DNA of 64,000 nucleotides from an uncultured Lachnospiraceae bacterium (GCA_946629175.1 CAMOXN010000001.1:2192-66191), one strand, 5' to 3'; shown: positions 1-47,688, counted from the stretch's first letter. A program made the numbers and translations. The notes: generated by a model not told the origin, from the letters alone.

Positions 1-3000
1 GCTTGCCGCTGTGATGGTCGTTACCTGCGTGATCCCGGGGATCGCTTTCGCCGCGGAGCCGGCCGAGGCAAATACGTCCGCCGAAGCATTCACTGCAGCG
101 GCAGAGGTCGAGCCCGTCAGGGAAACGGAAGAGGAAGAAGCGGCTGCGTCGGAAGAAGAGGTCACGGCGGAAGGCTCCGAAGCCAAAGCGGCAGAGGATG
201 CCGCTGAGGAGGAAACTCATGAAGCCGACGAGCTTTCCGGAGATCCGGAAGGTGAACAGGAAGCGGAGAAGGAAGGACCGGAAGGAGAGGCTCCGGAGGA
301 TAATGAAGGTGGGGAGACAATCGTCCCCGGAGAACGGAGCGGCGAGGAGAGCACAGAAGCTGCTCCGTCAGAGCCTGAAGAAGCGGAGGCTGATGCCGCG
401 GCAAGTGAGACAGCTTCTCCGGCAGAGCTGGAACAGCAGGCCGATACCGGCGGCGGGCGCAAGGCTGACATCGTCCCCTTCGTCGAAAGCCCTGCGTTCA
501 ACGCTGAGAAGAAAGCAGGCAAGTACGTAGTAAAGATCCACGCAGAGGAAGGAGTGCTTCCCAAGTCGACAAAGGTCTCTGTCACGGAGATGAAAGAAGC
601 GGAGGCGGAACCTTACGCTGAGAAAGCGGAGCAGATGGCGGACGCAGGCATTGCAGTCGCAGTCATCGACATTACTTTCACAGACTCTGAGGGCAGGGAG
701 ATCCAGCCGAACGGCATGGTCGAAGTGACATTCGCGAACGCGGTGGAAGAAAACTCCACCATGTCCGTCTACCATGCGCCCGAAGGTGATGCCTCAAAGA
801 TGGAAGAAGTCAGGTCCGAGGAAAAAGAAGACACGGTAACATTTAAGATGGACAGCTTTTCCCCGGTCGTGCTCCTGGCGGCGGCTGATGAACCGAACTG
901 GACAAAGGGCGGCGCCGGGACGCTCACCGATGTTACCGGTAAAGTCACATTCACACTGAAAGAACAGCAATTCTACAGGTACGACACAAGGGGACTTGGT
1001 GACTGGCTCACAATGACATACAACATGTATGTCGACAGCAAATATGTCGGACGATCCTTCTGCCTGGATCCCCGTCTGGACGGACGGGATTTTTCGCGAT
1101 CAGACAAGACGTACGAAGTCACGGCGCCTATGCTCCGCAAGGCGGCCTGGTACGGCCAGTACGGCCCCGGCAGCATCATCTCTTCCATTACGGGAACAGA
1201 TGATGAAGGAACCAACAATATCGTGACGCATGTCTCGATCTCCGAGATCTATGCCCGCCTGGGGTATACATCCAAATCAAGTGCAGGGGACGGGTTCCTT
1301 GAGACTTCCAACACGCTCAGGGATCATGTCAAGAGGTTCGTCAAGGCAATCGAGGACAAGGCGGACCCGCCGGGCGACTATTACCTGTATGTCGCCGTGA
1401 GCAGCGACAGCAGGAAACAGGACTTCGGCTTCGGCAGCTATGAACTCGTTGACCATGATGCCTCGTTCACGATCCGGAAGGCACCTGACGATGACAGCAG
1501 GACTGTCAGAGATATGATCACAGGCAACAGCAACTATGACCTGACCGGAGCGGTATACTGCGTCTACAGATCCGAAGAAGATGCCAGGGCAGACAGGAAC
1601 CGGGTCGCTGATACGGTGACGAAGAAGACCACTATAACCATTACCGGAATGGCAGATGTCGACGGTAAAGGCGTAAAGGGGATTTCAGATCCTTTCCATG
1701 TCGAACCGGGCAGCTACTACATTAAAGAAATAAAAGCGCCTGTGAAGGGCGGCTATCTGCTGAGCGAATCGATCACACCCGTCAGGCTCAGATCAGACGA
1801 AGACGCGGCCGTAAGTGTTTCCGATACTTACAAGTTCGTGTATCTGCGCATTAAGAAAGAGCCGAGGAACGTTCCGGAAGGTGTGACCCCTCCATCATTG
1901 GCCGGTGCCGTATTTAATATCTACAGTGATGCCAAATGTGAGAGCGGCTCCCTTGTGGGCACAGTCACAACGGATGAAAGGGGTTATACAGAGCAGCTGA
2001 AAGTGGACACGAAAGGCCATAAACTGCTCATCCAGAACTATTACGCCAAGGAGATCAAAGCTCCCGCGGGATACAGGAAAGTTGACAGCCGTTTGACGAT
2101 CGAGACGTCTTCCGCCCTTAAGGACCCGGTGCGGTACGCGCTGATCGACAGGACTGTATCGGAACCCCTGACACGTGCAGGCATCACGATCATCAAGGAA
2201 TCCGGCAGCACGGATATTACTGATGACAATTCCTGCTATCCTTCTCTGGCCGGCGCGAAATTCGGTATTTACAGAGATGCGACATGCCGGGATCTTGTTG
2301 AGACGATCGTGACTGATGAAGACGGCTTTGCGGAGTCGGGCAGCTCGCTGACCGTTGGAAATTACTGGATCAGGGAGCTGGAAGCGCCTTACGGATACAG
2401 GATCAATGAGGAGATCTTCCCTGTCACGAGTCAGGAGATCGCATCCGGCACACAGGAACTTATCGTCTCTGAAGAGCCGGCTCTTGACCCCGCGCAGATC
2501 ACGATCGAAAAGCGCGCAAAAGGAGACGTGAAGGGAAACAGCCTTGAGGGCGCTGAGTTCACGTTCAGCTACTACGACGGATATTATAAGTCTGAGAGTG
2601 AACTGCCGGAAAAGCCGGTGAGGAGCTGGACGGTCAGGACGAAAGAGACCGGCGGGCACTATGTCGCGAGACTCTATGACTGTAAGGAAAACGGAACATT
2701 TGTAAGCGGAGATGAGTTCTATACAGACATGAAAGGAAAGCCTGCCTTTCCTCTCGGAACTGTTACGATCAGCGAGACCAGGGCCCCTGAAGGCTACAAA
2801 AATGATCCGGACTTTGGCGGCGGATCAAAGATCCTGATCGGCAACGTGGTCCTGAACAGCGCCGGTGACGCTAAGTTCACCGTTGTTCTGGGAACGGAGC
2901 CTGCGGAAAACACGATAACGGTAGAAGAGACCCCGCATACGCCCTCGATCAGGACATCCGCGCTTGACGCGCAGTCGAGGAGCCACACTGCCTTCGCGGG

Positions 3001-5896: not shown

Positions 5897-7248
5897 TGAC
5901 TAAGTTAAGGCTGGCCGCAGGGCTGTCTGCGGCCTTTATAACAACAGGTAAATTCATTGCCGCAGTTTCGGCAGCGGCTCTCTTTGCTTTCCCCGCTGTG
6001 CTCACGTCGGCCGCATCGGAAGACGGAGGATGGACGGAAGTCATGGAGACCATTCACCACGACGAAGAAGGCCACTATGAGAACCAAAAGACCGGTGAGG
6101 CCGAGGTCGTTGACAAAAAAGCCTGGGATGAGCAGATAAAGCACTACTATTACGAATGCGCGGTGTGCCTGTTCAGGGACGAGACCGAGGACGGTTCTTT
6201 GATCAACGACCATATCCTTCGTGAGCACCCGACCGGAAACGGGAACCATTACTATGACCCCGTAGATGGCGATGAGATCTATCCGAGCTACCGTGAAAAA
6301 TATGAAATCGAGATCATCCACCATGATGCGGTGACGCATATGGAGGATGTCTATGAGGACGTTTGGATCGTTGACCGGAAAGCATATGACGAAGAGGTCC
6401 CTACAGGTCTGTACGGATATGTCGTTGAAGGAGAATTCGTAAGGAACGCAGTGGTGATGATAGACGGCAGGATCTATCCCTTTGATGATGACGGAATCAT
6501 TAAGCCTGATCAATGGGTCACGGTCGACGATAACAGATACTATACTGATGAGTCAGGTGAAGCTGTTACCGGTTGGCACATGATCGACGGCAGGAAGTAT
6601 TACTTCAGGGATGAACGGTATAGATCTTTCAGGGAAGCCGACCGCGGAAAGATGATGACCGGCTGGGCGAACATAGGAAACCGGACTTATTATTTCGCGG
6701 ACAGCCGATACCCGGCATATTCGGATTCCAAGAAAGGAATCATGCTCACGGGCTGGAAGACGATCGACGGCAGGAAATATTACTTCATGGACAGCTTTTA
6801 TTCGGAGTATGACGAGTCACAAAAAGGTATTCTCTTAACGGGATTTCGGAAGATCAATGGCAAATCCTATTATCTGACGGACAAACGCGCTGCAGGATAT
6901 AAGGACTGGAAGAGAGGGATTCTCCTTTCAGGGCACGTTACGGTCGGCGGAAAACGCTATTTTCTGACGAAAACGGGAGTAGTGGTAAAAAAACAATTCG
7001 CAACGCTGAACGGAGAAAAGTATTACTTCTCGAATGACGGCACCATGCTCAGAAACAGCTGGATCACCGTGAACGGAAGAAAGTTTTATCTCGAAAAGAG
7101 CGGGAAGATGCACAAGGGGCTCCTTACACTGAATGGTAAAAAGTATTATTTTGGCTGGAACGGCGTGCTTGTGGTGAACAGATGGATCACTGCTGACGGC
7201 AAGCGGTATTACGCGGACGGCAGCGGCGAGCTTGAAAAACAATACTGA
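5893..7248 (+). CDS. Secreted protein with C-terminal cell-wall (choline-binding-like) repeats and an N-terminal His/Cys-containing domain
   Basis: ATG at 5893 overlaps the upstream TGA (ATGA). Signal-peptide-like N-terminus; repeated GWxxIDGRKYYF / WITVNGRKFYL units; CAVC...H...H. Confidence 0.85.
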   Translation: MMTKLRLAAGLSAAFITTGKFIAAVSAAALFAFPAVLTSAASEDGGWTEVMETIHHDEEGHYENQKTGEAEVVDKKAWDEQIKHYYYECAVCLFRDETEDGSLINDHILREHPTGNGNHYYDPVDGDEIYPSYREKYEIEIIHHDAVTHMEDVYEDVWIVDRKAYDEEVPTGLYGYVVEGEFVRNAVVMIDGRIYPFDDDGIIKPDQWVTVDDNRYYTDESGEAVTGWHMIDGRKYYFRDERYRSFREADRGKMMTGWANIGNRTYYFADSRYPAYSDSKKGIMLTGWKTIDGRKYYFMDSFYSEYDESQKGILLTGFRKINGKSYYLTDKRAAGYKDWKRGILLSGHVTVGGKRYFLTKTGVVVKKQFATLNGEKYYFSNDGTMLRNSWITVNGRKFYLEKSGKMHKGLLTLNGKKYYFGWNGVLVVNRWITADGKRYYADGSGELEKQY

Positions 7249-7301
7249 CGCCGTCTTTCGTACAAAACGCTGAAAAACAGCTGAAATCAGAATATTCCTT
7301 C

Positions 7302-7330
7302 TTGTAATACTCCACAAGAATCGCTATAAT
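7302..7330 (+). promoter_or_regulatory. Putative sigmaA promoter of the EF-G paralogue
   Basis: TTGTAA (7302-7307), 17 bp spacer, TATAAT (7325-7330). Confidence 0.6.
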
Positions 7331-7407
7331 ATACTGGACTGTTTGTTTAGCTCAGTTTACAGAGAGAACAAATGCTCTAAATATATTGGTATAGTGGAGG
7401 TCTGGAA

Positions 7408-9498
7408 ATGAAAGTTTATACTACCGATAAGATCAGGAATGTCGTTCTTCTGGGTCACGGCGGCGCCGGGAAGACAACTCTGGCAGAGGCTATGTGCAAT
7501 CTGACAGGTCTGACATCCAGAATGGGTAAGGTCGAAGACGGGAACACCGTCAGCGACTTCACGAAGGAAGAGCAGAAGAGAGGTTTCTCCATCAGCACTT
7601 CGATCATCCCCGTTGAGTGGAAGGACTGCAAGATCAACGTTCTGGATACTCCCGGATACTTCGACTTCGTGGGAGAAGTCGAGGAAGCGATCAGCGTTGC
7701 TGACGCGGCGATCATCGTTGTTTCCGGCAAGGCCGGTGTCGAGGTAGGTTCCGAGAGAGCATGGGAGCTCTGCGAGAAGTACAATATTCCGAGAATGTTC
7801 TATATCTCCGATATGGATGTCGAAAATGCCAACTACCACGACGTGGCTGAGAAGCTTTCCGACCTGTACGGCGTGAAGATCGTTCCTTTCAACTTCCCTT
7901 ACTACACGAACGGCAAGTTTGCGGGATCCGTCAACGTGATCACACAGAAAGCTTATGAGTTCTCCGGCAAGAACGTGAAGGAAGTCGATGTTCCGGCGGA
8001 CTGCCAGGACCACCTGGAGCACTACCACGACACTCTGATGGAGACTGTGGCGGAGACCAGTGAAGAGTTCATGGAGCGCTATTTTGAAGGCGACGAGTTC
8101 ACTGAAGAAGAGATCCTCGAAGCTGTCGGCGCAAGTGTCAAGGACGGATCCGTTGTTCCCGTAGAAATGGGTGCTAGCGCAGCCAATCTGGGCGTCAGTG
8201 TTCTGCTGGACGATGTCGTGAATTACCTTCCCGATGCAGGTTACCGCAAGATCAGCGGCACCAACCTGAAGACAGGCGAAGCTTTTGAGGCTGATTACGA
8301 TGCTTCCAAACCGAAGAGCGCGTTCATCTTCAAGACCATTGTGGATCCTTTCATCGGAAGATATTCCCTGATCAAGGTCAATTCCGGCGTCATGAAGACA
8401 GATGACACTGTGTATGACAACGGGCTCGACACAGAGCTCAGACTGGGCAAGCTGTATATTATGTGCGGCAACAAGACTTCCGAGATCGCGGAACTTCAGG
8501 CCGGCGATATCGGCGCTGTCGCGAAGCTGGGCGATGCCAAGACCGGAGATACTCTGTCTACGAAGGCGACCCCGATCCAGTACGAGGCAATGCAGATCTC
8601 CACACCTTACACCTACATCAGGTATAAGGCGAAGAACAAGAACGACGTCGACAAGATCGCTCAGGCGATGACCAAGATCTCCTCTGAGGATCCTACTTTC
8701 AAGATGGTCAACGACTCCGACAACAGGCAGACACTGATGTACGGTATCGGCGACATGCAGCTTGAAGTTGTCAAGAGCATGCTCAAGAACGAGTACAAGG
8801 TCGAGATCGAGACCATGGCTCCGAAGGTAGCTTACAGGGAGACCATCCGCAAGAATTCCAACGTCGAGTACAAGTATAAGAAACAGTCCGGCGGACACGG
8901 CCAGTACGGACACGTCAAGATGAAATACAGCCCTCTGGAAGACCAGAGCAAGGCTTATGAGTTCAGCGATGAGGTCGTAGGCGGAACCGTTCCGAAGAAC
9001 TACTTCCCCGCTGTCGAGAAGGGAATCATCGACTCCGTCCAGAAGGGACCGCTTGCGGGCTATCCTGTTGTCGGTGTCAACTGCGTCCTGTACGACGGAT
9101 CCTACCACCCGGTAGACTCCTCGGAAATGGCATTCAAGACCGCTTCCGTCCAGGCATTCAAGAAGGGCTTCATGGAAGCGGGCCCTGTCCTGCTCGAGCC
9201 CATCGTCAGCCTCAAGGTCACCATCCCGGATGCATATACCGGTGATGTTATGGGCGATCTTAACAAGAGGCGCGGCAGAGTCCTGGGCATGAACCCCATC
9301 GGCGGCGGCAAGCAGGTCGTTGAGGCGGAAGTTCCTCAGTCCGAGCTGTTCGACTACTGCACAGTCCTTCGTTCCATGACCGGCGGACGCGGCGATTACG
9401 CGTATGAGTTCGTGAGATATGAGCAGGCTCCTGCTGACATCCAGGCCAAGGAAGTCGAGGCGAGAGCAGCTATGCTCGCTGAAGGTGTTGAGGACTGA
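7408..9498 (+). CDS. fusA2: Elongation factor G paralogue (EF-G2 / EFG-II type)
   Basis: GHGGAGKT, RGFSI, DTPGY, KQSGGHGQYGH, HPVDSS, EPI...GDVMGDL; 696 aa; stands alone, not in an rpsL-rpsG-fusA-tuf operon; GGAGG RBS. Confidence 0.9.
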   Translation: MKVYTTDKIRNVVLLGHGGAGKTTLAEAMCNLTGLTSRMGKVEDGNTVSDFTKEEQKRGFSISTSIIPVEWKDCKINVLDTPGYFDFVGEVEEAISVADAAIIVVSGKAGVEVGSERAWELCEKYNIPRMFYISDMDVENANYHDVAEKLSDLYGVKIVPFNFPYYTNGKFAGSVNVITQKAYEFSGKNVKEVDVPADCQDHLEHYHDTLMETVAETSEEFMERYFEGDEFTEEEILEAVGASVKDGSVVPVEMGASAANLGVSVLLDDVVNYLPDAGYRKISGTNLKTGEAFEADYDASKPKSAFIFKTIVDPFIGRYSLIKVNSGVMKTDDTVYDNGLDTELRLGKLYIMCGNKTSEIAELQAGDIGAVAKLGDAKTGDTLSTKATPIQYEAMQISTPYTYIRYKAKNKNDVDKIAQAMTKISSEDPTFKMVNDSDNRQTLMYGIGDMQLEVVKSMLKNEYKVEIETMAPKVAYRETIRKNSNVEYKYKKQSGGHGQYGHVKMKYSPLEDQSKAYEFSDEVVGGTVPKNYFPAVEKGIIDSVQKGPLAGYPVVGVNCVLYDGSYHPVDSSEMAFKTASVQAFKKGFMEAGPVLLEPIVSLKVTIPDAYTGDVMGDLNKRRGRVLGMNPIGGGKQVVEAEVPQSELFDYCTVLRSMTGGRGDYAYEFVRYEQAPADIQAKEVEARAAMLAEGVED

Positions 9499-38218: not shown

Positions 38219-38359
38219 GCGGCCCGGCTGTTCTTGGGGGAGGGTTCTGCCGGGACGCACCGGCTGAAGACTTCGGAACAGGCAAAATACAGAATGAAAG
38301 GAAGCGCGGTATCATGCCGCTGGTCTCAAATATACGTAACAGGAAGGACGAAACGAAAG

Positions 38360-39241
38360 ATGATACAGGATATTGCTCCCCGCAAGATGTACAACCAGTT
38401 CAGGCCGGGCATGGTCCCGGACGCTGACAGCCCTGTCTTTTTGTTTGCGGATGACAAGATGAAGTTTTTTATGGCGCATGTGTCAGAGGGACGCATGCGC
38501 TATCCAGTGTTCGGGGAACTGCCGGATGGGATCAGCTACACGTATCTCTTCTCCATCGACGACGACAAGTATTTTATGGGTACCCCGGACGACCCGGAGA
38601 CGTTTCAGTATCCGGAGGGGCTCACGAAGCTTGGGATCAGGGAGCTCAGGTCCGAATATTACCGCGGCGAAGAGAACAGGCACCTGATCTTTGCCGCTTA
38701 TACAGCCGGCCAGCTCGCGGGATGGTACAGGGACAACCGCTACTGCGGGACCTGCGCGCACATGACTGTCCCCTCACAAACGGAGAGGGCGCTCGTCTGC
38801 CCGAACTGCGGCAGGATCATCTACCCGAGGATCCTGCCTGCGGTCATCATCGCAGTGACGGACAAAGACCGCATGATCATGACCAAATATGCCGGAAGGT
38901 CGCTGCCTTTTTATGCCTTGGTCGCGGGTTTCAATGAGATCGGAGAGAGCCTGGAGGAGACCGTAAAGCGTGAAGTCATGGAGGAAGTAGGGCTTAAGGT
39001 CAAGAACATCCGCTACTATAAATCCCAACCGTGGGGGATCGTCGACGATATCCTTACCGGTTATTACTGCGATGTGGACGGCAGCACCGAGATCAAAATG
39101 GACAGGACCGAGCTCAAGGAAGCGGTATGGATGGAGAGAAAGGAGATCATGGGACAGCCCCATGACCTCAGCCTTACCAACGAGATGATGATCACTTTCC
39201 GCGACGGGAAGGAACCGCTTGGATACAGATACGCGGAGTAA
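38360..39241 (+). CDS. nudC: NAD(+) diphosphatase (Nudix)
   Basis: Zinc finger CGTC...CPNC, YPRI, Nudix box AGFNEIGESLEETVKREVMEEVG, SQPW motif; ATG at 38360. Confidence 0.9.
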   Translation: MIQDIAPRKMYNQFRPGMVPDADSPVFLFADDKMKFFMAHVSEGRMRYPVFGELPDGISYTYLFSIDDDKYFMGTPDDPETFQYPEGLTKLGIRELRSEYYRGEENRHLIFAAYTAGQLAGWYRDNRYCGTCAHMTVPSQTERALVCPNCGRIIYPRILPAVIIAVTDKDRMIMTKYAGRSLPFYALVAGFNEIGESLEETVKREVMEEVGLKVKNIRYYKSQPWGIVDDILTGYYCDVDGSTEIKMDRTELKEAVWMERKEIMGQPHDLSLTNEMMITFRDGKEPLGYRYAE

Positions 39242-39247
39242 CGCGCT

Positions 39248-40747
39248 ATGAAAGCTATGAACCTGTACCTCGTCTCGAGAGCTGCGGGCAGCTCTGATTT
39301 CTCGCTTCTTGTCAGAGAACTGACGGGGGAAATACATTACAAGGAATACAGCAGGCACGAAGCGGAGTCTCTCCGCGCGCTGACGGACGGGCTGACCCCG
39401 CATCTGATGGACAGATGCAGGGATGGCGGCAGCTGGGCCTCATTTCTGGACGGATTCTATTTCTCCTATACCATCGCGCACATAAGCAAGGAATTCGACC
39501 TGCTCAAGATCACCGGCGACGGTGACTGCGTCCTGAACATTGAGCTCAAGAGTGAATCCATAGAAGAAGAGAGGATCAGTAAACAGCTGGCGCAGAACCG
39601 GTACTATCTCTCCCATATCTCCAAGACGATCTATTCGTACACTTATGTGATGGAGACCGGCACGCTCTATGTCCTGAATGACAAGGGCCATATGAGGGTC
39701 TCTTCCATGGCGGAACTGGCGGAGGTACTGTGCAAGCCGGTATTTGCCGAGTATGTCGAAAAAGATCTCGATCTCTATTTCAGGGCGGCCGATTACCTGA
39801 TCTCCCCTGCGGCGGAGCCTGAAAAATTCCTGCAGGGAGGCTATTTTCTGACCAACCAGCAGGAGGAGTTCAAGAGAAAGATCCTGGAGACGCTCAAAGA
39901 AGATACGCCCGACAGCCCGGCTCCTTTCATCGTTGTCATAGGCGCCGCGGGAACGGGCAAGACCCTTCTTCTCTTTGATCTTGCCATGGCGCTCTCGAAA
40001 AGAAAGAGGGTGCTCCTTCTTCACGGGGGCAGGCTCCAGAGCGGGCACAGGATCATTGACGAGCGGCTGCGCAATGTTGACCTGAGAGAGGCGGACTGTT
40101 TTGACGATACGGCAGATTACACCTGCCTTCTCGCGGACGAGGCCAACAGGATCCCTGCGGATATCATGGACCGCGTCGTTTCCTATGTGCGGGGCCACAA
40201 TGTTCCGTGCATCATGACCTATGACCCGCACCTTCTGGCAGGGCGGGAGACGACAATGATGCAGGCGGAAGAGAGGATCACGGACCTGAGCACACAGACG
40301 CTGGAGTTCACGGGAAATATCAGGATCAACCGGCCGGTCTTCTCATTTTTGAAAGCGCTTTTTCATCAGAAGAACCTTCCGTCCGCGGTGGATTACAGCT
40401 GCATCGACGTGCTTTACGGCAGGATGCGTGAAGAAGTGCAGGCGATCCTGTTGTATTACATGAACAAAGGATACCGGAAGATCACGCTTCCCGGAGGCGG
40501 AGGCGAGATCGGCGAAGGGCTGGGCGCGGACGAGATCGTCGGGCTTGAGTTCGACTGCGTCCTGGTTATCGTTGACGACAGATTCTATTATGACGAAGAT
40601 ATGCATCTGAGGGCTGACGGACCGGCTTCCGGGGAGGCATTAAACCTTCTCTACGAAGGCATTTCCAGGACGAGGGAGAAGCTTTGCGTTCTTGTGTATC
40701 ACAATGAGAAGCTGTTCTCGGATATACTAAGACTTCGTGAGCGGTAA
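39248..40747 (+). CDS. Putative PD-(D/E)xK nuclease + SF1-like P-loop helicase (DUF2075/Schlafen-group-like)
   Basis: EFDLL...IELKS; GAAGTGKT; LADEANR; GLEFDCV; GISRTREKL. Confidence 0.75.
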   Translation: MKAMNLYLVSRAAGSSDFSLLVRELTGEIHYKEYSRHEAESLRALTDGLTPHLMDRCRDGGSWASFLDGFYFSYTIAHISKEFDLLKITGDGDCVLNIELKSESIEEERISKQLAQNRYYLSHISKTIYSYTYVMETGTLYVLNDKGHMRVSSMAELAEVLCKPVFAEYVEKDLDLYFRAADYLISPAAEPEKFLQGGYFLTNQQEEFKRKILETLKEDTPDSPAPFIVVIGAAGTGKTLLLFDLAMALSKRKRVLLLHGGRLQSGHRIIDERLRNVDLREADCFDDTADYTCLLADEANRIPADIMDRVVSYVRGHNVPCIMTYDPHLLAGRETTMMQAEERITDLSTQTLEFTGNIRINRPVFSFLKALFHQKNLPSAVDYSCIDVLYGRMREEVQAILLYYMNKGYRKITLPGGGGEIGEGLGADEIVGLEFDCVLVIVDDRFYYDEDMHLRADGPASGEALNLLYEGISRTREKLCVLVYHNEKLFSDILRLRER

Positions 40748-42739: not shown

Positions 42740-44538
42740 ATAGCAATACGGAATCGGTATCCCTGCCCCTGTTCGGCATTCCGAGACTGATCCCATATCT
42801 GAGACCATACAGAAAAAGAATGACGCGGATGATCCTTCTGGCGCTCGTCTGCAGCGTTGTGGATGTCTCATATCCGCTTTTCGGCCGCTACGTGCTGGAC
42901 CACTACATTGCGGAAGGGACCCTGCAGGGCCTGCCTGGGTTCATCGCGCTGTATCTGGCTGTGCTGGCTTTCCAATCCGTCATCAACGACCGGACGATGG
43001 TCGACTCGGGAACGGTGGAGATGAGCGTCGACAGGGATCTGCGCAACAGGGCCTTCGGCCACCTGCAGACGCTGTCTTTTTCCTATTTCAACCAGAACAG
43101 CGTGGGCTATATCCACGCGAGGGTGATGAGCGACACGGGAAAGATCGGAGAGGCTGTCTCCTGGAGAATGATGGACTGTATCTGGAACGGCTCTTACATC
43201 CTCTTCGCGATCGTCGTGATGTTCATGACGGATGTGCGGCTGGCACTGTGGATGATCGCTCTTCTCATGGCTGCCGGGCTCCTGATCTCTGTCTTCCAGA
43301 GAAAGCTCGTCGCCGTGAACCGGCTGATCCGCGAGATGAACTCGAAGATCACCGGGGATTTCAACGAGGGGATCACCGGCGCGCAGTCGATCAAGCTCCT
43401 GGGCATTGAGCAGAAGATGCTTGAGGAGTTCGAGGAAGACACGGAGTCCTACCGCCGCGAATCCGTACACGCAGTGCGGTATTCCGCAATGCTGCTGTCC
43501 ACGGTGACCCTGATGTCATCTGCCGCGCTGGCTGTCGTTCTGTGGCAGGGAGGGAGCCTTACGCGGGAAGGCATCATGAAGATCGGAACGCTCTCGGTCT
43601 TTGTCTCCTATGCGGTAGGCATGGTGGAACCGCTCCAGTTCATCATCCAGAACATCTCGTCCTTTATCAGCATCCAGGTCAACATCGAACGGCTGACCGG
43701 CCTTCTCGCGGAGCCGCCGGATGTATCGGACACGTCGGAAGTGACCGCCCGCTACGGGGACAGCTTCCATCCCAGACGTGAGAACTGGGAGGAACTTCGC
43801 GGCGACATCGAGTTCAGGGATGTGACCTTCCGCTACCCGGACGGAGAGGAGAACGTCCTGGAGCATTTCAGCCTCAAAGTCCCGCAGGGCCAAAATATTG
43901 CCATCGTCGGCGAGACCGGCGCCGGCAAGTCCACACTGGTCAACCTGCTGTGCCGCTTCTATGAGCCAACGGAAGGGCAGCTCCTCATCGACGGACGGGA
44001 CGCGAGGGAGAGATCCCAGCTGTGGCTGCACAGCCATATCGGATATGTGCTGCAGACGCCGCACCTGTTCTCCGGCTCCGTGAGGGAGAACCTGCGATAC
44101 GGGAGACCCGACGCGACGGATGAGGAGATCATGGAAGCGCTGGAGATGGTCTCCGCGCGCGGGATCGTTGAAAAAATGGGAGGGCTTGACAGCGAAGTGG
44201 GAGAAGGGGGCAGCCATCTGTCGACAGGAGAGAAACAGCTTCTGTCTTTTGCCAGGGCATTGCTGGCAGACCCCAGGCTCCTGGTCCTGGACGAGGCGAC
44301 CTCTTCGATCGATTCGCTCACGGAAAAGGAGATCCAGGATGCCATTTCGGTCGTAACGAAAGGCAGGACCTCCTTCGTGATCGCGCACCGGCTCTCGACG
44401 ATCGCCGGCGCGGATATGATCCTTGCAGTGCAGGATGGAAAGATCATAGAGATGGGAAAGCACCCGGAACTGATGAGGAAGAGAGGATATTATTATTCCC
44501 TGTACACAAGACAGTTCGAGGAGAGCATATTGGAGTGA
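42736..44538 (+). CDS. ABC exporter, permease/ATPase subunit 2
   Basis: TMD + NBD: GETGAGKS, LSTGEKQ, LDEATSSID; ATGA overlap with subunit 1 suggests a heterodimer. Confidence 0.92.
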   Translation: MNSNTESVSLPLFGIPRLIPYLRPYRKRMTRMILLALVCSVVDVSYPLFGRYVLDHYIAEGTLQGLPGFIALYLAVLAFQSVINDRTMVDSGTVEMSVDRDLRNRAFGHLQTLSFSYFNQNSVGYIHARVMSDTGKIGEAVSWRMMDCIWNGSYILFAIVVMFMTDVRLALWMIALLMAAGLLISVFQRKLVAVNRLIREMNSKITGDFNEGITGAQSIKLLGIEQKMLEEFEEDTESYRRESVHAVRYSAMLLSTVTLMSSAALAVVLWQGGSLTREGIMKIGTLSVFVSYAVGMVEPLQFIIQNISSFISIQVNIERLTGLLAEPPDVSDTSEVTARYGDSFHPRRENWEELRGDIEFRDVTFRYPDGEENVLEHFSLKVPQGQNIAIVGETGAGKSTLVNLLCRFYEPTEGQLLIDGRDARERSQLWLHSHIGYVLQTPHLFSGSVRENLRYGRPDATDEEIMEALEMVSARGIVEKMGGLDSEVGEGGSHLSTGEKQLLSFARALLADPRLLVLDEATSSIDSLTEKEIQDAISVVTKGRTSFVIAHRLSTIAGADMILAVQDGKIIEMGKHPELMRKRGYYYSLYTRQFEESILE

Positions 44539-44583
44539 ACCCGGGAAGACGGCCCTTCAGGACCCGGGAGCGGACCCGCCGGT

Positions 44584-45090
44584 TCACTCCCCCATATGCA
44601 TGGGGAAGATGCCCTTGAAAGGGAGAAGGGCTGACAGCAGGATCTGCCCGAGCACCAGGCAGGAGAGCACTTCCCCTATACCGACAGTAGCCATAAAATA
44701 GGGGATGCCGCCGGGAATATGATACGCATAGGTCAGTATGAAAGGAATGATCAGCATGTTGGAGACAATGGGAGGAAGGGAGACCAGGAACCGGTTCCTG
44801 CGCAGATGATAGGATCCGAACGCGCCGATCAAGGTCGCCAGGGATCCGAAAATGATGTCCGGCAGCGCGCATCCGGTCACAAGATTGCTGATCAGGCATC
44901 CCAAAGTGAGGCCCGGGACTGCCGCGGGAGTAAAGAAGGGAAGGATCGTGAGCGCTTCGGAAAAGCGCACCTGGATCGCGCCACTCGCAAGATCGAACCC
45001 GGCAGCGATCATCGTAAGCACGGTGTAGATCGCCGCAATGACACCGGCCTGCGCGATAAAGAACGTTTTCTGTACGTATTTGGAATTCAT
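44584..45090 (-). CDS. queT: QueT-family (queuosine precursor) membrane transporter component
   Basis: AGVIAAIYTVLT...QVRFSEALTILP...GLTLGCLISN...DIIFGSLATL; ATG at 45090 after AGAAAGG. Confidence 0.85.
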   Translation of the reverse strand: MNSKYVQKTFFIAQAGVIAAIYTVLTMIAAGFDLASGAIQVRFSEALTILPFFTPAAVPGLTLGCLISNLVTGCALPDIIFGSLATLIGAFGSYHLRRNRFLVSLPPIVSNMLIIPFILTYAYHIPGGIPYFMATVGIGEVLSCLVLGQILLSALLPFKGIFPMHMGE

Positions 45091-45167
45091 GTGCATTGCC
45101 TTTCTGCAGTAAATACGCCGATGCGGCCGGGTATATATCCTGCCTTTCAGATGTCGTGAATTTCTGC

Positions 45168-46733
45168 TCACATGTTCCCGCTGCCGTATTCGCCCAGCAG
45201 CAGCCATGCGTCGTCATCTTTTTCCTGCTCACTGAGAGCAAGTTCCTCATAGGGAAGAAGAAGATTGTGCCTGCGGAGCGGGTTGTCCCGCACTTCGCTG
45301 TACCGCCAGTTATAGATGGTGTGAAAGCGCATCCAGCGCATATGTTCAATGGCGCGGTAAAGGTCATGTTTTTTCGCCGCGGTCTCCTTATATACTTCGA
45401 AGGCCCTGCGGCTGTCCTCCTGCGTCAGTCTCCCGCGGATGGCCCGGCCAAGGAGGATCGACGCTTTGACCGACAGATGGTCCGCGGACGCGATGCTTGA
45501 CTGGCGGTGGAACTCGGAGAGCTCCTCCCATTTTTTACCGCCGTATCTGGAGCGGTAAAGCTCATTGACCCTGATGCCCAGGGAGACGAGTGTGTTGCTC
45601 ATGACCGTTTCCGGTTCGTAGAGCTCTTCGTCGCTGCCGAAGACGATCATTCCCGGCTCCTCCACCATCCGGGAGAGGCGGACGAAGACTTTCCCGCGGA
45701 GGGGATAATAGGTCCTGAGAGCCCAGTATAATTCCAGGTCTTCGTCGTCTGAATCAGTGCAGAGAATAATGCGGTCAGCCCCTTCGAGCAGGTCCGGGCA
45801 GTTCTCCCACGGCTCCTGATGGAACCGCAGCGAATCTCCGGCGGCCCCTTCGCCGTCGACACTCATGATCTCTTTCAGGCGGCTGTGGAGGCCCTTGAAA
45901 TGCGCAAAGTCACCGAACACGTGATAGGAGATGCTCTGGTCCGGCGAGAAAACATTGTTGAGGAGCCCTTTCTCCAGGAGCGGCTCCCCGTAACGCTTTC
46001 CGCCGATGATGACCAACTCTTTTTCCTGCGGCTCCAGCGGGTGGTCCAGCCAGAACATCCTGCCGGCGGCATCGCTGTCTGAGAAGAGCGTGACACCTTC
46101 CGGCCGCTCGTCCGGGCGGGCGCCGCTCCTTGCATAGACTTTACAGCCTGAAGCCGCGGCGCTCTTCGCGCTCAGATAATTGTCCCAGCCGTCCTCACCA
46201 AGAAGGAAAAGGCAGATCCCGTCTCTGTGACCGGGCCTCTCTGAAAGGCATTCTTTATAATCCATAGGGACATACAGGATCTGATGCTTTCCTTTTTGAC
46301 TGAACTGCTGATCTATGGAGGCATCGGATCCGCACAGGATGATTACTGCGTCGGAATCCTCTTCGGACAGTCTGTCCGCCAAAAGACTGCTGCGGGGACC
46401 GTCATCCGAGAAGAGATACCATCGTTTCCTGCGGAGGATACGAAGGCGGAGGCCCGGCAGGAAATTCCCGTTGATAAAAGACACTGCAAGGCCGATGATC
46501 CAGGACAAAAGACCGACGCTCCCGATCAGGAAGAACGCGCCGATCAGCCTGCCGGGCAGCGACTGGGGCACAAGGTCTCCGTACCCGACCGTGGTCAGTG
46601 TGACGACCAGATACCAGAGCGCTTCCTGAGGGGAACTGATCCCTTCTTCGACATTCTGGAGGATGAATGCGGATATCATGAGAACTGCCAGAAAGGCAAG
46701 AACTATGATCAGTCTCTTTTTTTCTCTCTTCAT
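45168..46733 (-). CDS. Potassium-channel pore domain fused to RCK-like domains and a C-terminal RyR-repeat-like domain
   Basis: TM-pore-TM with TLTTVGYGD (TTVGYGD at 46575-46595); Rossmann-like VIIGGKRYG...ILCTDSDDEDL; C-terminal WEELSEFHRQSS..ADH..VK...EHMRW...WRY...RD...HNLLLPYEEL..EQEKD. Confidence 0.8.
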   Translation of the reverse strand: MKREKKRLIIVLAFLAVLMISAFILQNVEEGISSPQEALWYLVVTLTTVGYGDLVPQSLPGRLIGAFFLIGSVGLLSWIIGLAVSFINGNFLPGLRLRILRRKRWYLFSDDGPRSSLLADRLSEEDSDAVIILCGSDASIDQQFSQKGKHQILYVPMDYKECLSERPGHRDGICLFLLGEDGWDNYLSAKSAAASGCKVYARSGARPDERPEGVTLFSDSDAAGRMFWLDHPLEPQEKELVIIGGKRYGEPLLEKGLLNNVFSPDQSISYHVFGDFAHFKGLHSRLKEIMSVDGEGAAGDSLRFHQEPWENCPDLLEGADRIILCTDSDDEDLELYWALRTYYPLRGKVFVRLSRMVEEPGMIVFGSDEELYEPETVMSNTLVSLGIRVNELYRSRYGGKKWEELSEFHRQSSIASADHLSVKASILLGRAIRGRLTQEDSRRAFEVYKETAAKKHDLYRAIEHMRWMRFHTIYNWRYSEVRDNPLRRHNLLLPYEELALSEQEKDDDAWLLLGEYGSGNM

Positions 46734-46749
46734 AATAGGTCCATCGCTT

Positions 46750-47688
46750 TCAAGATCTGTTTTTATGAGCCGGTTCCGAATACGCCTGTTCTAAATTCGC
46801 CTGTTCAATATGCGCCTGCTTTAAATGAGTCAGTTTAATATGAGCCTCCCTGATCGGCGGCAGGACACTGTCCGGCACATACAGGTGCCCGTAACCGGTC
46901 CCCAGATCGAGGTTCTTCTTGCGGGCCCCGTGGTAGTCGCTCCCCCCGCTCACAAGAAGGCCGTACTCATCCGCGATGCGGCAGAGGTATGCAGTATCGG
47001 CAGGCTTGTAGCCGGAGTAATAGACTTCGATCCCCAGAAGGCCTTCCGCTTCCAGGGAGGAGACCAGTTCCCGCAGCCCGGCATCGGTCAGCTTGTACTG
47101 CAAAGGGTGCGCCAGGATCGGGACGCCGCCGTACTGCAGCACGAGGCGCACCGCGTCGGCCGGTGTCAGATTCTCCCTCGGTACGAAGTAAGGGCAGTCG
47201 TCGCCGATCAGTTTCGAAAAGACCTCTTCGACGGAGGAGACCATCCCGTGCTCACAGAGATACTGCGCGAAATGCGCCCTTGTGATCACCGTATCCGGAA
47301 AAGCGGCCTCAAGGGCCTCGTATGTCACTTCGTATCCTGCCTCCGTAAGGAGCCGGCACATCTTCCTGTTCCGGAAGATCCTCGCGTCAGCGAATTCCTG
47401 CAGTTTATCCGCAAAAGCCGGGTCTTTCCAGTCGATATAAAGGCCGATGATGTGAATGTCTTTTCCCATGTATTCGGTTGAGAGCTCGACGCCCGGAATG
47501 ACTTCGGGGGCGTTTTCTTCATTCATTTCCCGGGCGGCGGCCATGGCTTCCGCGATCCCGACAACGGTGTCATGGTCCGTCAGCGCGACAGCCGCAAGGC
47601 CCTTGCGGAAAGCATAGCGGACCAGTTCCTTCGGTGTGCAGGTCCCGTCTGAGCCGGCAGAGTGGGTGTGCAGATCAACAGGGCGCAT
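46750..47688 (-). CDS. PHP-domain phosphoesterase (TrpH/YciV-like)
   Basis: DLHTHS..SDG, LTDHDT, GVELS, AHP, GGSDYHG. Confidence 0.9.
   Translation of the reverse strand: MRPVDLHTHSAGSDGTCTPKELVRYAFRKGLAAVALTDHDTVVGIAEAMAAAREMNEENAPEVIPGVELSTEYMGKDIHIIGLYIDWKDPAFADKLQEFADARIFRNRKMCRLLTEAGYEVTYEALEAAFPDTVITRAHFAQYLCEHGMVSSVEEVFSKLIGDDCPYFVPRENLTPADAVRLVLQYGGVPILAHPLQYKLTDAGLRELVSSLEAEGLLGIEVYYSGYKPADTAYLCRIADEYGLLVSGGSDYHGARKKNLDLGTGYGHLYVPDSVLPPIREAHIKLTHLKQAHIEQANLEQAYSEPAHKNRS
46765..46846. repeat. Degenerate 15 bp tandem repeat (5.5 units) forming the PHP C-terminal tail
   Basis: atgagccggttccga / atacgcctgttctaa / attcgcctgttcaat / atgcgcctgctttaa / atgagtcagtttaat / atgagcc. Confidence 0.75.

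Follow-up and report, generated by a model that had tools for sequence, protein, structure and literature searches.

A predicted Lachnospiraceae K+ channel with tandem RCK-like lobes and a ryanodine receptor Repeat12 module as its likely ligand sensor

The window analyzed here, a stretch of 64,000 nt from an uncultured Lachnospiraceae bacterium, carries a gene whose product is likely a K+ channel that combines RCK-like lobes with a tail of ryanodine receptor (RyR) repeats as its ligand sensor (Table 1). The gene is flanked by a PHP phosphoesterase gene and by queT on the same strand. The distances given in the initial annotation, 16 bp to the PHP stop codon and 77 bp to queT, were reproduced, the latter for an ATG at position 45090 that is located behind a GAAAGG site and is a more plausible start of queT than the listed ORF start at 45207. 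Long ORFs at 44444-45367 (-), 46284-46838 (+) and further places are shadows of the real genes, which they overlap in a different frame or strand.

Table 1 Features of the channel gene and its upstream neighbor, with positions counted from the first nucleotide of the window.
Feature	Position	Strand	Basis
Whole gene, K+ channel/tandem-RCK/R12 fusion, 521 aa	45168..46733	(-)	ORF call
2-TM pore domain, residues 1-100	46434..46733	(-)	Ion_trans_2, PDB, VIA
Selectivity filter TTVGYGD, residues 47-53	46575..46595	(-)	Read from sequence
RCK-like Rossmann lobe 1, residues 103-232	46038..46427	(-)	Model, alignment to CASTOR/GsuK/TrkA rings
RCK-like Rossmann lobe 2, residues 238-370	45624..46022	(-)	Model, fold matches, conservation
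R12 half 1, degenerate RyR repeat, residues 374-430	45444..45614	(-)	VIA, conservation
R12 half 2, canonical RyR repeat, residues 433-521	45171..45437	(-)	PF02026 partial, VIA, 35tm_A alignment
Putative pocket residue H464	45342-45344	(-)	Aligned to RyDEP H75
Putative pocket residue W467	45333-45335	(-)	Aligned to RyDEP W78
Putative pocket residue H489	45267-45269	(-)	Aligned to RyDEP H100
Putative pocket residue D506	45216-45218	(-)	Aligned to RyDEP D117
PHP phosphoesterase	46750..47688	(-)	ORF call, 16-bp gap to channel

It had been proposed that PHP, channel and queT constitute a functional module in which the PHP enzyme might turn over the ligand of the channel. Consistent with this, all three genes are located on one strand, and we found no terminator-like site between ABCF, PHP, channel and queT. 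Between positions 44500 and 47800 of the window, queT, the channel and PHP are represented with at least 99% identity by ruminant-gut metatranscriptome contigs from three studies, although DNA carry-over is possible in such RNA libraries; one of these contigs, 696 nt long, spans positions 46241-46936 and hence the PHP/channel junction, but need not reflect a single transcript. Together, the bridging contig and the lack of a terminator-like site make read-through transcription likely, and the channel gene is probably read through from ABCF-PHP, but this reflects insertion into a housekeeping operon and not a system. In three genomes of the same genus (G005, G015 and G023), the ABC transporter gene, which in the window ends at 44538, directly abuts PHP, followed by ABCF as in the window, and neither queT nor the channel gene is present between the ABC transporter gene and PHP. 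In the DNA alignment with these loci, homology runs to the stop codon of the ABC transporter gene, with divergence beyond it. In all three genomes queT resides on another contig, as does the channel homolog of G005 and G015, which is only 39% identical. Throughout the genus, ABCF and PHP keep their synteny. Furthermore, PHP and queT occur at none of 29 other loci of the channel family, all of them apart from the closest homologs P0002-P0010 (45-90% identity). The PHP protein itself is a TrpH/YciV-type housekeeping enzyme, with the 3',5'-nucleoside bisphosphate phosphatase and RNase RNM models as best NCBIfam matches, both under the cut-off. No riboswitch was detected by Rfam near queT or the channel gene, nor were there convincing flanking repeats marking an inserted queT-channel segment. 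The sequence comparison thus indicates that queT and the channel gene were inserted into a conserved ABCF-PHP housekeeping synteny, in the source genome only among those compared. We conclude that the adjacency of the channel to PHP and queT is coincidental and without functional meaning, and a module in which PHP processes the ligand is hardly credible.

The 2-TM pore with an intact filter that the initial annotation had described is clearly present. The filter reads T47-T48-V49-G50-Y51-G52-D53, and the pore domain matched the Pfam model Ion_trans_2 with 48.7 bits (cut-off 22.5, E 7e-13). Sequence matches of the pore in the PDB were the pores of NaK, Kv and MlotiK channels, and by fold (VIA) NaK/4h33 was found with Z 9.1-9.6. 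Among 254 family members, the filter is kept at G50 in 249, at Y51 in 246, at G52 in 240 and at D53 in 237 proteins. The full-length AF2 model, a monomer that was built on a 30-sequence family alignment, reached a pLDDT of 89.1 and a pTM of 0.81.

RCK-gated K+ channels are well known. In the model, the pore is followed by two alpha/beta Rossmann lobes, corresponding to the two degenerate Rossmann/RCK-like segments that had been noticed in the sequence. In the Foldseek comparison with the PDB, GsuK ranked at the top (4gx0, 4gx1-ADP and 4gx2-NAD, E 1.5e-8), followed by Slo2.2, Slo1 and TrkA, and VIA returned the gating ring of CASTOR (Z 15.8, 303 aligned), DMI1 (Z 15.0), GsuK (Z 14.1, 357 aligned over model residues 3-400), Slo1 (Z 13.9) and TrkA (Z 13.6). 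These matches to GsuK, CASTOR, Slo and TrkA point to a pore and tandem-RCK architecture that is seen by fold and not by sequence profile. No Pfam match to TrkA_N, TrkA_C or cNMP-binding domains was obtained at E<=1 in the 521-aa protein, in agreement with the earlier statement that no RCK_C/TrkA_C or cNMP-binding domain is recognizable, and the TrkA_N/TrkA_C signature is also absent from the precomputed domains of 120 homologs. In the family consensus, lobe 1 lacks a Gly-rich dinucleotide motif. Lobe 2 possesses an invariant G244 (254 of 254 members) within a partial GxG motif as well as a conserved YHVFGD strand. The arrangement resembles that of GsuK, CASTOR/DMI1, Slo1/Slo2.2 and TrkA, which likewise have two RCK-type lobes per subunit after a K+ channel pore; for GsuK, a multi-ligand K+ channel of Geobacter sulfurreducens (PDB 4GX0/4GX1/4GX2/4GX5) that binds ADP and NAD+ in its own RCK domains, the fold match extends from the pore into the second lobe. 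However, the new channel is merely 11-17% identical to these proteins, it lacks the TrkA_N/TrkA_C Pfam signal and the Gly-rich motif of lobe 1, and it carries a C-terminal R12 module as an extra that none of them has.

For this C-terminal region, the initial annotation had suggested an RyR-repeat pattern. It is weak by Pfam, where the RyR model PF02026 scored 19.2 bits, under the cut-off of 27.4, and covered only residues 463-507 and profile positions 28-72, but it is clear by PDB sequence search and by fold; most homologs carry a precomputed PF02026 match. Compared with the PDB by sequence, the last 151 aa matched RyR domains only, namely 6uhi (E 4.3e-9), 5c30 (5.5e-5), 3nrt from B. thetaiotaomicron (9e-4) and 35tm_A (1.1e-3). 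A separate model of residues 371-521 had a pLDDT of 93.2, and every top Foldseek match to it was an RyR Repeat12 (R12) structure. VIA returned 28 RyR rows with Z 9.9-4.4, compared with Z<=3.1 for unrelated rows. Among them were 6uhi, a Bt-hRyR chimera (Z 9.9, 134 aligned), the whole tandem R12 of RyR3 in its AMP-PCP structure (residues 862-1048 against model positions 5-150, Z 8.4, 135 aligned) and the single repeat of B. thetaiotaomicron (model positions 63-151, Z 6.8); over the tandem domain, human RyR3 R12 with AMP-PCP and dantrolene gave Z 8.0-8.4. The sequence and fold matches indicate that the tail is an entire R12 module with both repeats, degenerate in its first half, which is marked by W402, A417-D418-H419 and K423, and canonical in its second. 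The R12 of animal RyRs (human RyR3 848-1055; PDB 6UHH, 9L90 and 9LS7), for which structures with ATP, ADP, AMP-PCP and dantrolene exist in the case of human RyR3, is the same two-repeat pseudo-symmetric helical module. It agrees with the new tail over about 130 residues at Z 8.0-8.4 and shares with it the HxxW/H/D ligand residues, whereas identity is only about 13% and the first repeat of the new tail is degenerate in sequence. Moreover, R12 is part of a giant Ca2+-release channel in animals but here is attached to a K+ channel with a predicted RCK ring.

A possible function of this module is suggested by the phage RyR-domain protein RyDEP, which was described in a 2026 preprint to bind and cleave 2'/3'cADPR via H75, W78, H100 and D117, with the H/D dyad contacting the terminal ribose; the equivalent positions bind adenine ligands in the R12 of RyR3, and most RyDEP homologs bind only, without hydrolysis (PMC13232231). 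We mapped these positions by a phmmer alignment of the tail to 35tm_A, a 'RyR domain-containing protein' of 139 aa that is probably RyDEP and agrees with it in numbering apart from an offset of one. All four residues have a counterpart in the second repeat (Table 1). Among the 254 family members, H464 is kept in 252, W467 in 251 and H489 in 250, and comparison with the counts for the filter suggests that these three residues are under selection no weaker than that on the filter itself. D506, kept in 229 members, is less conserved than the filter residues. R466 is present in all 254 members, and H419 and K423 in 253 each. RyDEP and the B. thetaiotaomicron protein 3NRT consist of the same PF02026-type repeat as the new tail, and the RyDEP ligand residues align. 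However, RyDEP is a small soluble homodimer acting as a glycosidase or sponge, whereas the new protein has two repeats in one chain, placed at the tail of a membrane channel. With the RyDEP ligand residues conserved across the family, the notion that the RyR tail is the ligand sensor of the channel gained support and appears likely. The retained H/D dyad would also make hydrolysis of a cyclic ADPR-type ligand possible, yet most RyDEP homologs bind only.

The family-wide conservation of the RyDEP ligand residues makes an adenine-nucleotide-gated K+ channel the best reading of the gene. Building by analogy on the observed domain anatomy, fold matches, pocket conservation and gene contexts, we infer the assembly into a tetramer and ring, the binding and identity of the ligand and the gating direction as follows. 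Four subunits would form a K+-selective 2-TM pore, as in GsuK, Slo and CASTOR, and their eight RCK lobes would build a GsuK/Slo/CASTOR-like gating ring beneath it, on which the R12 modules would sit. An adenine-containing nucleotide, either ADPR or another NAD-derived molecule or ATP/ADP, would occupy the R12 pocket. Its binding would shift the RCK ring and then the inner-helix gate, altering K+ flux and membrane potential. We consider such a tetrameric channel with an RCK ring, gated by an adenine nucleotide in the R12 pocket, moderately probable.

Alternatively, the RyR module might be merely a structural or protein-interaction appendage, with the RCK lobes alone gating the channel in the service of ordinary K+ homeostasis, for example in response to ligands such as those of GsuK and CASTOR (Ca2+ or NAD/ADP). 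RCK rings are the strongest fold matches of the protein, G244 and the YHVFGD strand of lobe 2 are conserved, and the gene resides in a housekeeping context, where it probably shares a transcript with ABCF-PHP. In RyR1, interaction sites have been assigned to RyR domains (PMC4820453), and since animal R12 domains are also interaction surfaces, a conserved pocket alone is no proof of gating. Against the appendage, conservation within the whole protein is highest at the RyDEP/R12 ligand residues and not at surface positions. Furthermore, the family is rare and patchy, found in 5 of 24 genomes of the same genus, in 13 of 400 genera of the bacterial family and in 5 of 399 genomes of the class, which is unusual for a core homeostasis channel. 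We therefore regard gating by the RCK lobes alone as rather improbable and favor the adenine nucleotide as the gating ligand.

The fusion itself is conserved in the family, which includes more than 200 homologs that match over the full length and have about 500-530 aa. An exhaustive search with the cytosolic part yielded 826 matches, 167 of them at E<=1e-30; among the best 150 of these 826 relatives, nearly all have the length of the channel (~500-530 aa). No match to the cytosolic part was found by tblastn in plasmids and phages. Sequencing runs from sheep and bovine gut contain the channel sequence, and a metagenome scan recovered the same strain only (L117). In other families of the class, three proteins of ~460-480 aa (L119, L120 and L121, in genomes G370, G155 and G374) align to the channel profile over residues ~170-518 only (E 1e-31 to 1e-40); they have an RCK-like and RyR-like body, with the N-terminus different or missing. 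In a quick tree, the window protein belongs to a well-supported clade with P0003, P0005, P0006, P0009 and P0010.

At 11 of the 29 other loci, the channel gene is directly adjacent to a gene for an RyR-domain membrane paralog of 600-655 aa, which consists of an N-terminal membrane domain without the K+ filter, Rossmann-like segments and an RyR-like tail in which EHxRW, H and D are retained. Five of these 11 loci also carry a gene for a TIR-domain protein, the architectures of which are diverse, with beta-propeller, LRR/DUF285 or Sel1 as partner domains. Given ~0.75 TIR_2 matches per 3-Mb genome in the bacterial family, chance would produce well under one channel-linked TIR locus, with fewer than 0.2 loci of this type expected. 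The other 18 loci are solo. In L009 and L011, a supposed 'paralog type 2' was rejected, its ORFs being antisense shadows of the same paralog. In G015 and G005, an alpha/beta-hydrolase gene (Hydrolase_4/Peptidase_S9) at L106 9409-10329 and L107 9406-10326, respectively, overlaps the start of the paralog-channel pair, resulting in a three-gene run of hydrolase, paralog and channel without a TIR gene.

Next to the window copy there is no paralog and no TIR gene, and a custom TIR HMM found no TIR gene within the 64-kb window; the channel gene is an orphan among conserved housekeeping genes. Elsewhere in the source genome (G000), contig C61 (L151) encodes at 6842-8704 (-) a 620-aa RyR-domain membrane paralog that is unlinked to the channel. 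This protein is 60% identical to the paralog of G015, which adjoins a channel homolog there, as does the paralog of G005. Its neighbors are DUF218, EEP-family, epimerase and LeuA/AraC genes, and the protein itself produced no Pfam match and no PDB sequence match. The only TIR_2 match of the source genome, a 68%-complete assembly, is located on contig C133 (L110) at 1-2118 (-), where a protein of >706 aa with TIR, Sel1 and TPR parts runs off the 2.9-kb contig. Compared with the TIR-Sel1 protein that is linked to the channel in L011, it shows no specific resemblance.

These observations allow a different assignment of the signal, in which the channel, possibly together with the C61 paralog, is an effector gated in trans by an NAD-derived molecule that a TIR enzyme from another locus produces, acting as a Thoeris-like membrane effector or as a signaling output; H464/D506 might also hydrolyze the signal in a RyDEP-like manner. 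The TIR genes beside channel-paralog pairs at five of the 29 loci speak for such a link, and so do the pocket, which retains the RyDEP dyad contacting the terminal ribose, and the presence of both an RyR paralog and a TIR-Sel1/TPR gene in the source genome. A known system with a comparable arrangement is Thoeris type X, composed of the TIR protein ThsB and the 'ion channel' effector ThsK, the signal of which is not known (bioRxiv 10.64898/2025.12.03.692087). As at the five TIR-bearing loci, the TIR gene adjoins the ion-channel gene there, a likeness that refers to the description of ThsK only. However, its hosts are Bacillus and Vibrio, which are absent among the full-length relatives of the new channel, and RyR is not mentioned in the Thoeris survey (10.64898/2025.12.03.692087). 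Moreover, Thoeris type X has a TIR neighbor, which the window channel lacks.

Several further findings argue against a TIR-made signal for the window copy. There is no TIR gene in the window, most family loci are solo, and the TIR protein of the source genome does not specifically resemble the channel-linked TIR-Sel1 protein. TIR genes are common in the bacterial family, with TIR_2 found in 42% of its genomes (167/400) and in 7 of 13 channel-bearing genomes, which is no clear enrichment and uninformative at the genome level. In the quick tree, the TIR-linked members are located on other, long and deep branches; all eight members of a Dorea/Lachnospiraceae clade are solo. PADLOC yielded no model match for the channel or PHP. 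A defense-island context may be considered from an AbiO/Nhi gene that PADLOC assigned at a distance of 4.4 kb from the channel, but conserved ABC transporter genes lie in between. The AbiO/Nhi-like protein has 499 aa and matches the PADLOC anti-phage nuclease-helicase models with E 1.4e-109 and 1.6e-104; 6 bp upstream of its gene lies a NudC-type NUDIX gene (NUDIX plus NADH-pyrophosphatase zinc ribbon; both genes within 38234-40747 (+)), so that in the window an NAD-hydrolyzing NudC-type enzyme stands directly before a defense gene. The function as a defense effector that the initial annotation had considered is plausible at the five of 29 loci with an adjacent TIR gene, whereas nothing shows it for the window copy. 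On this evidence, gating of the window channel by a TIR signal in trans is possible but unlikely. It is likewise doubtful that the channel would be the receptor of a TIR-made NAD-derived nucleotide, such as a cADPR isomer or relative, that its R12 module would sense and may hydrolyze via H464/D506, and that it may co-assemble with the C61 paralog. If true, however, such a TIR-nucleotide receptor would be a minimal prokaryotic counterpart of the disputed link from cADPR to the ryanodine receptor.

The proteins described here constitute a real variant of RCK-gated K+ channels with a predicted R12 nucleotide sensor. In public databases, the homologs are annotated as 'ion transporter' or 'ion channel', and our literature search found no paper describing a family of K+ channel/RyR fusions. 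Recognition of R12 as a nucleotide pocket dates only from 2025-2026, reportedly with dantrolene and ATP in the case of RyR3. In phage RyDEP, the ligands are cADPR isomers (PMC13232231). The main value of the window copy is that it represents a clean solo member of the family and proves the irrelevance of the PHP/queT neighborhood. A small bacterial channel combining RCK lobes and R12 could be a tractable system for studying the coupling between the R12 pocket and the pore, and could show whether ADPR-type signals gate channels.
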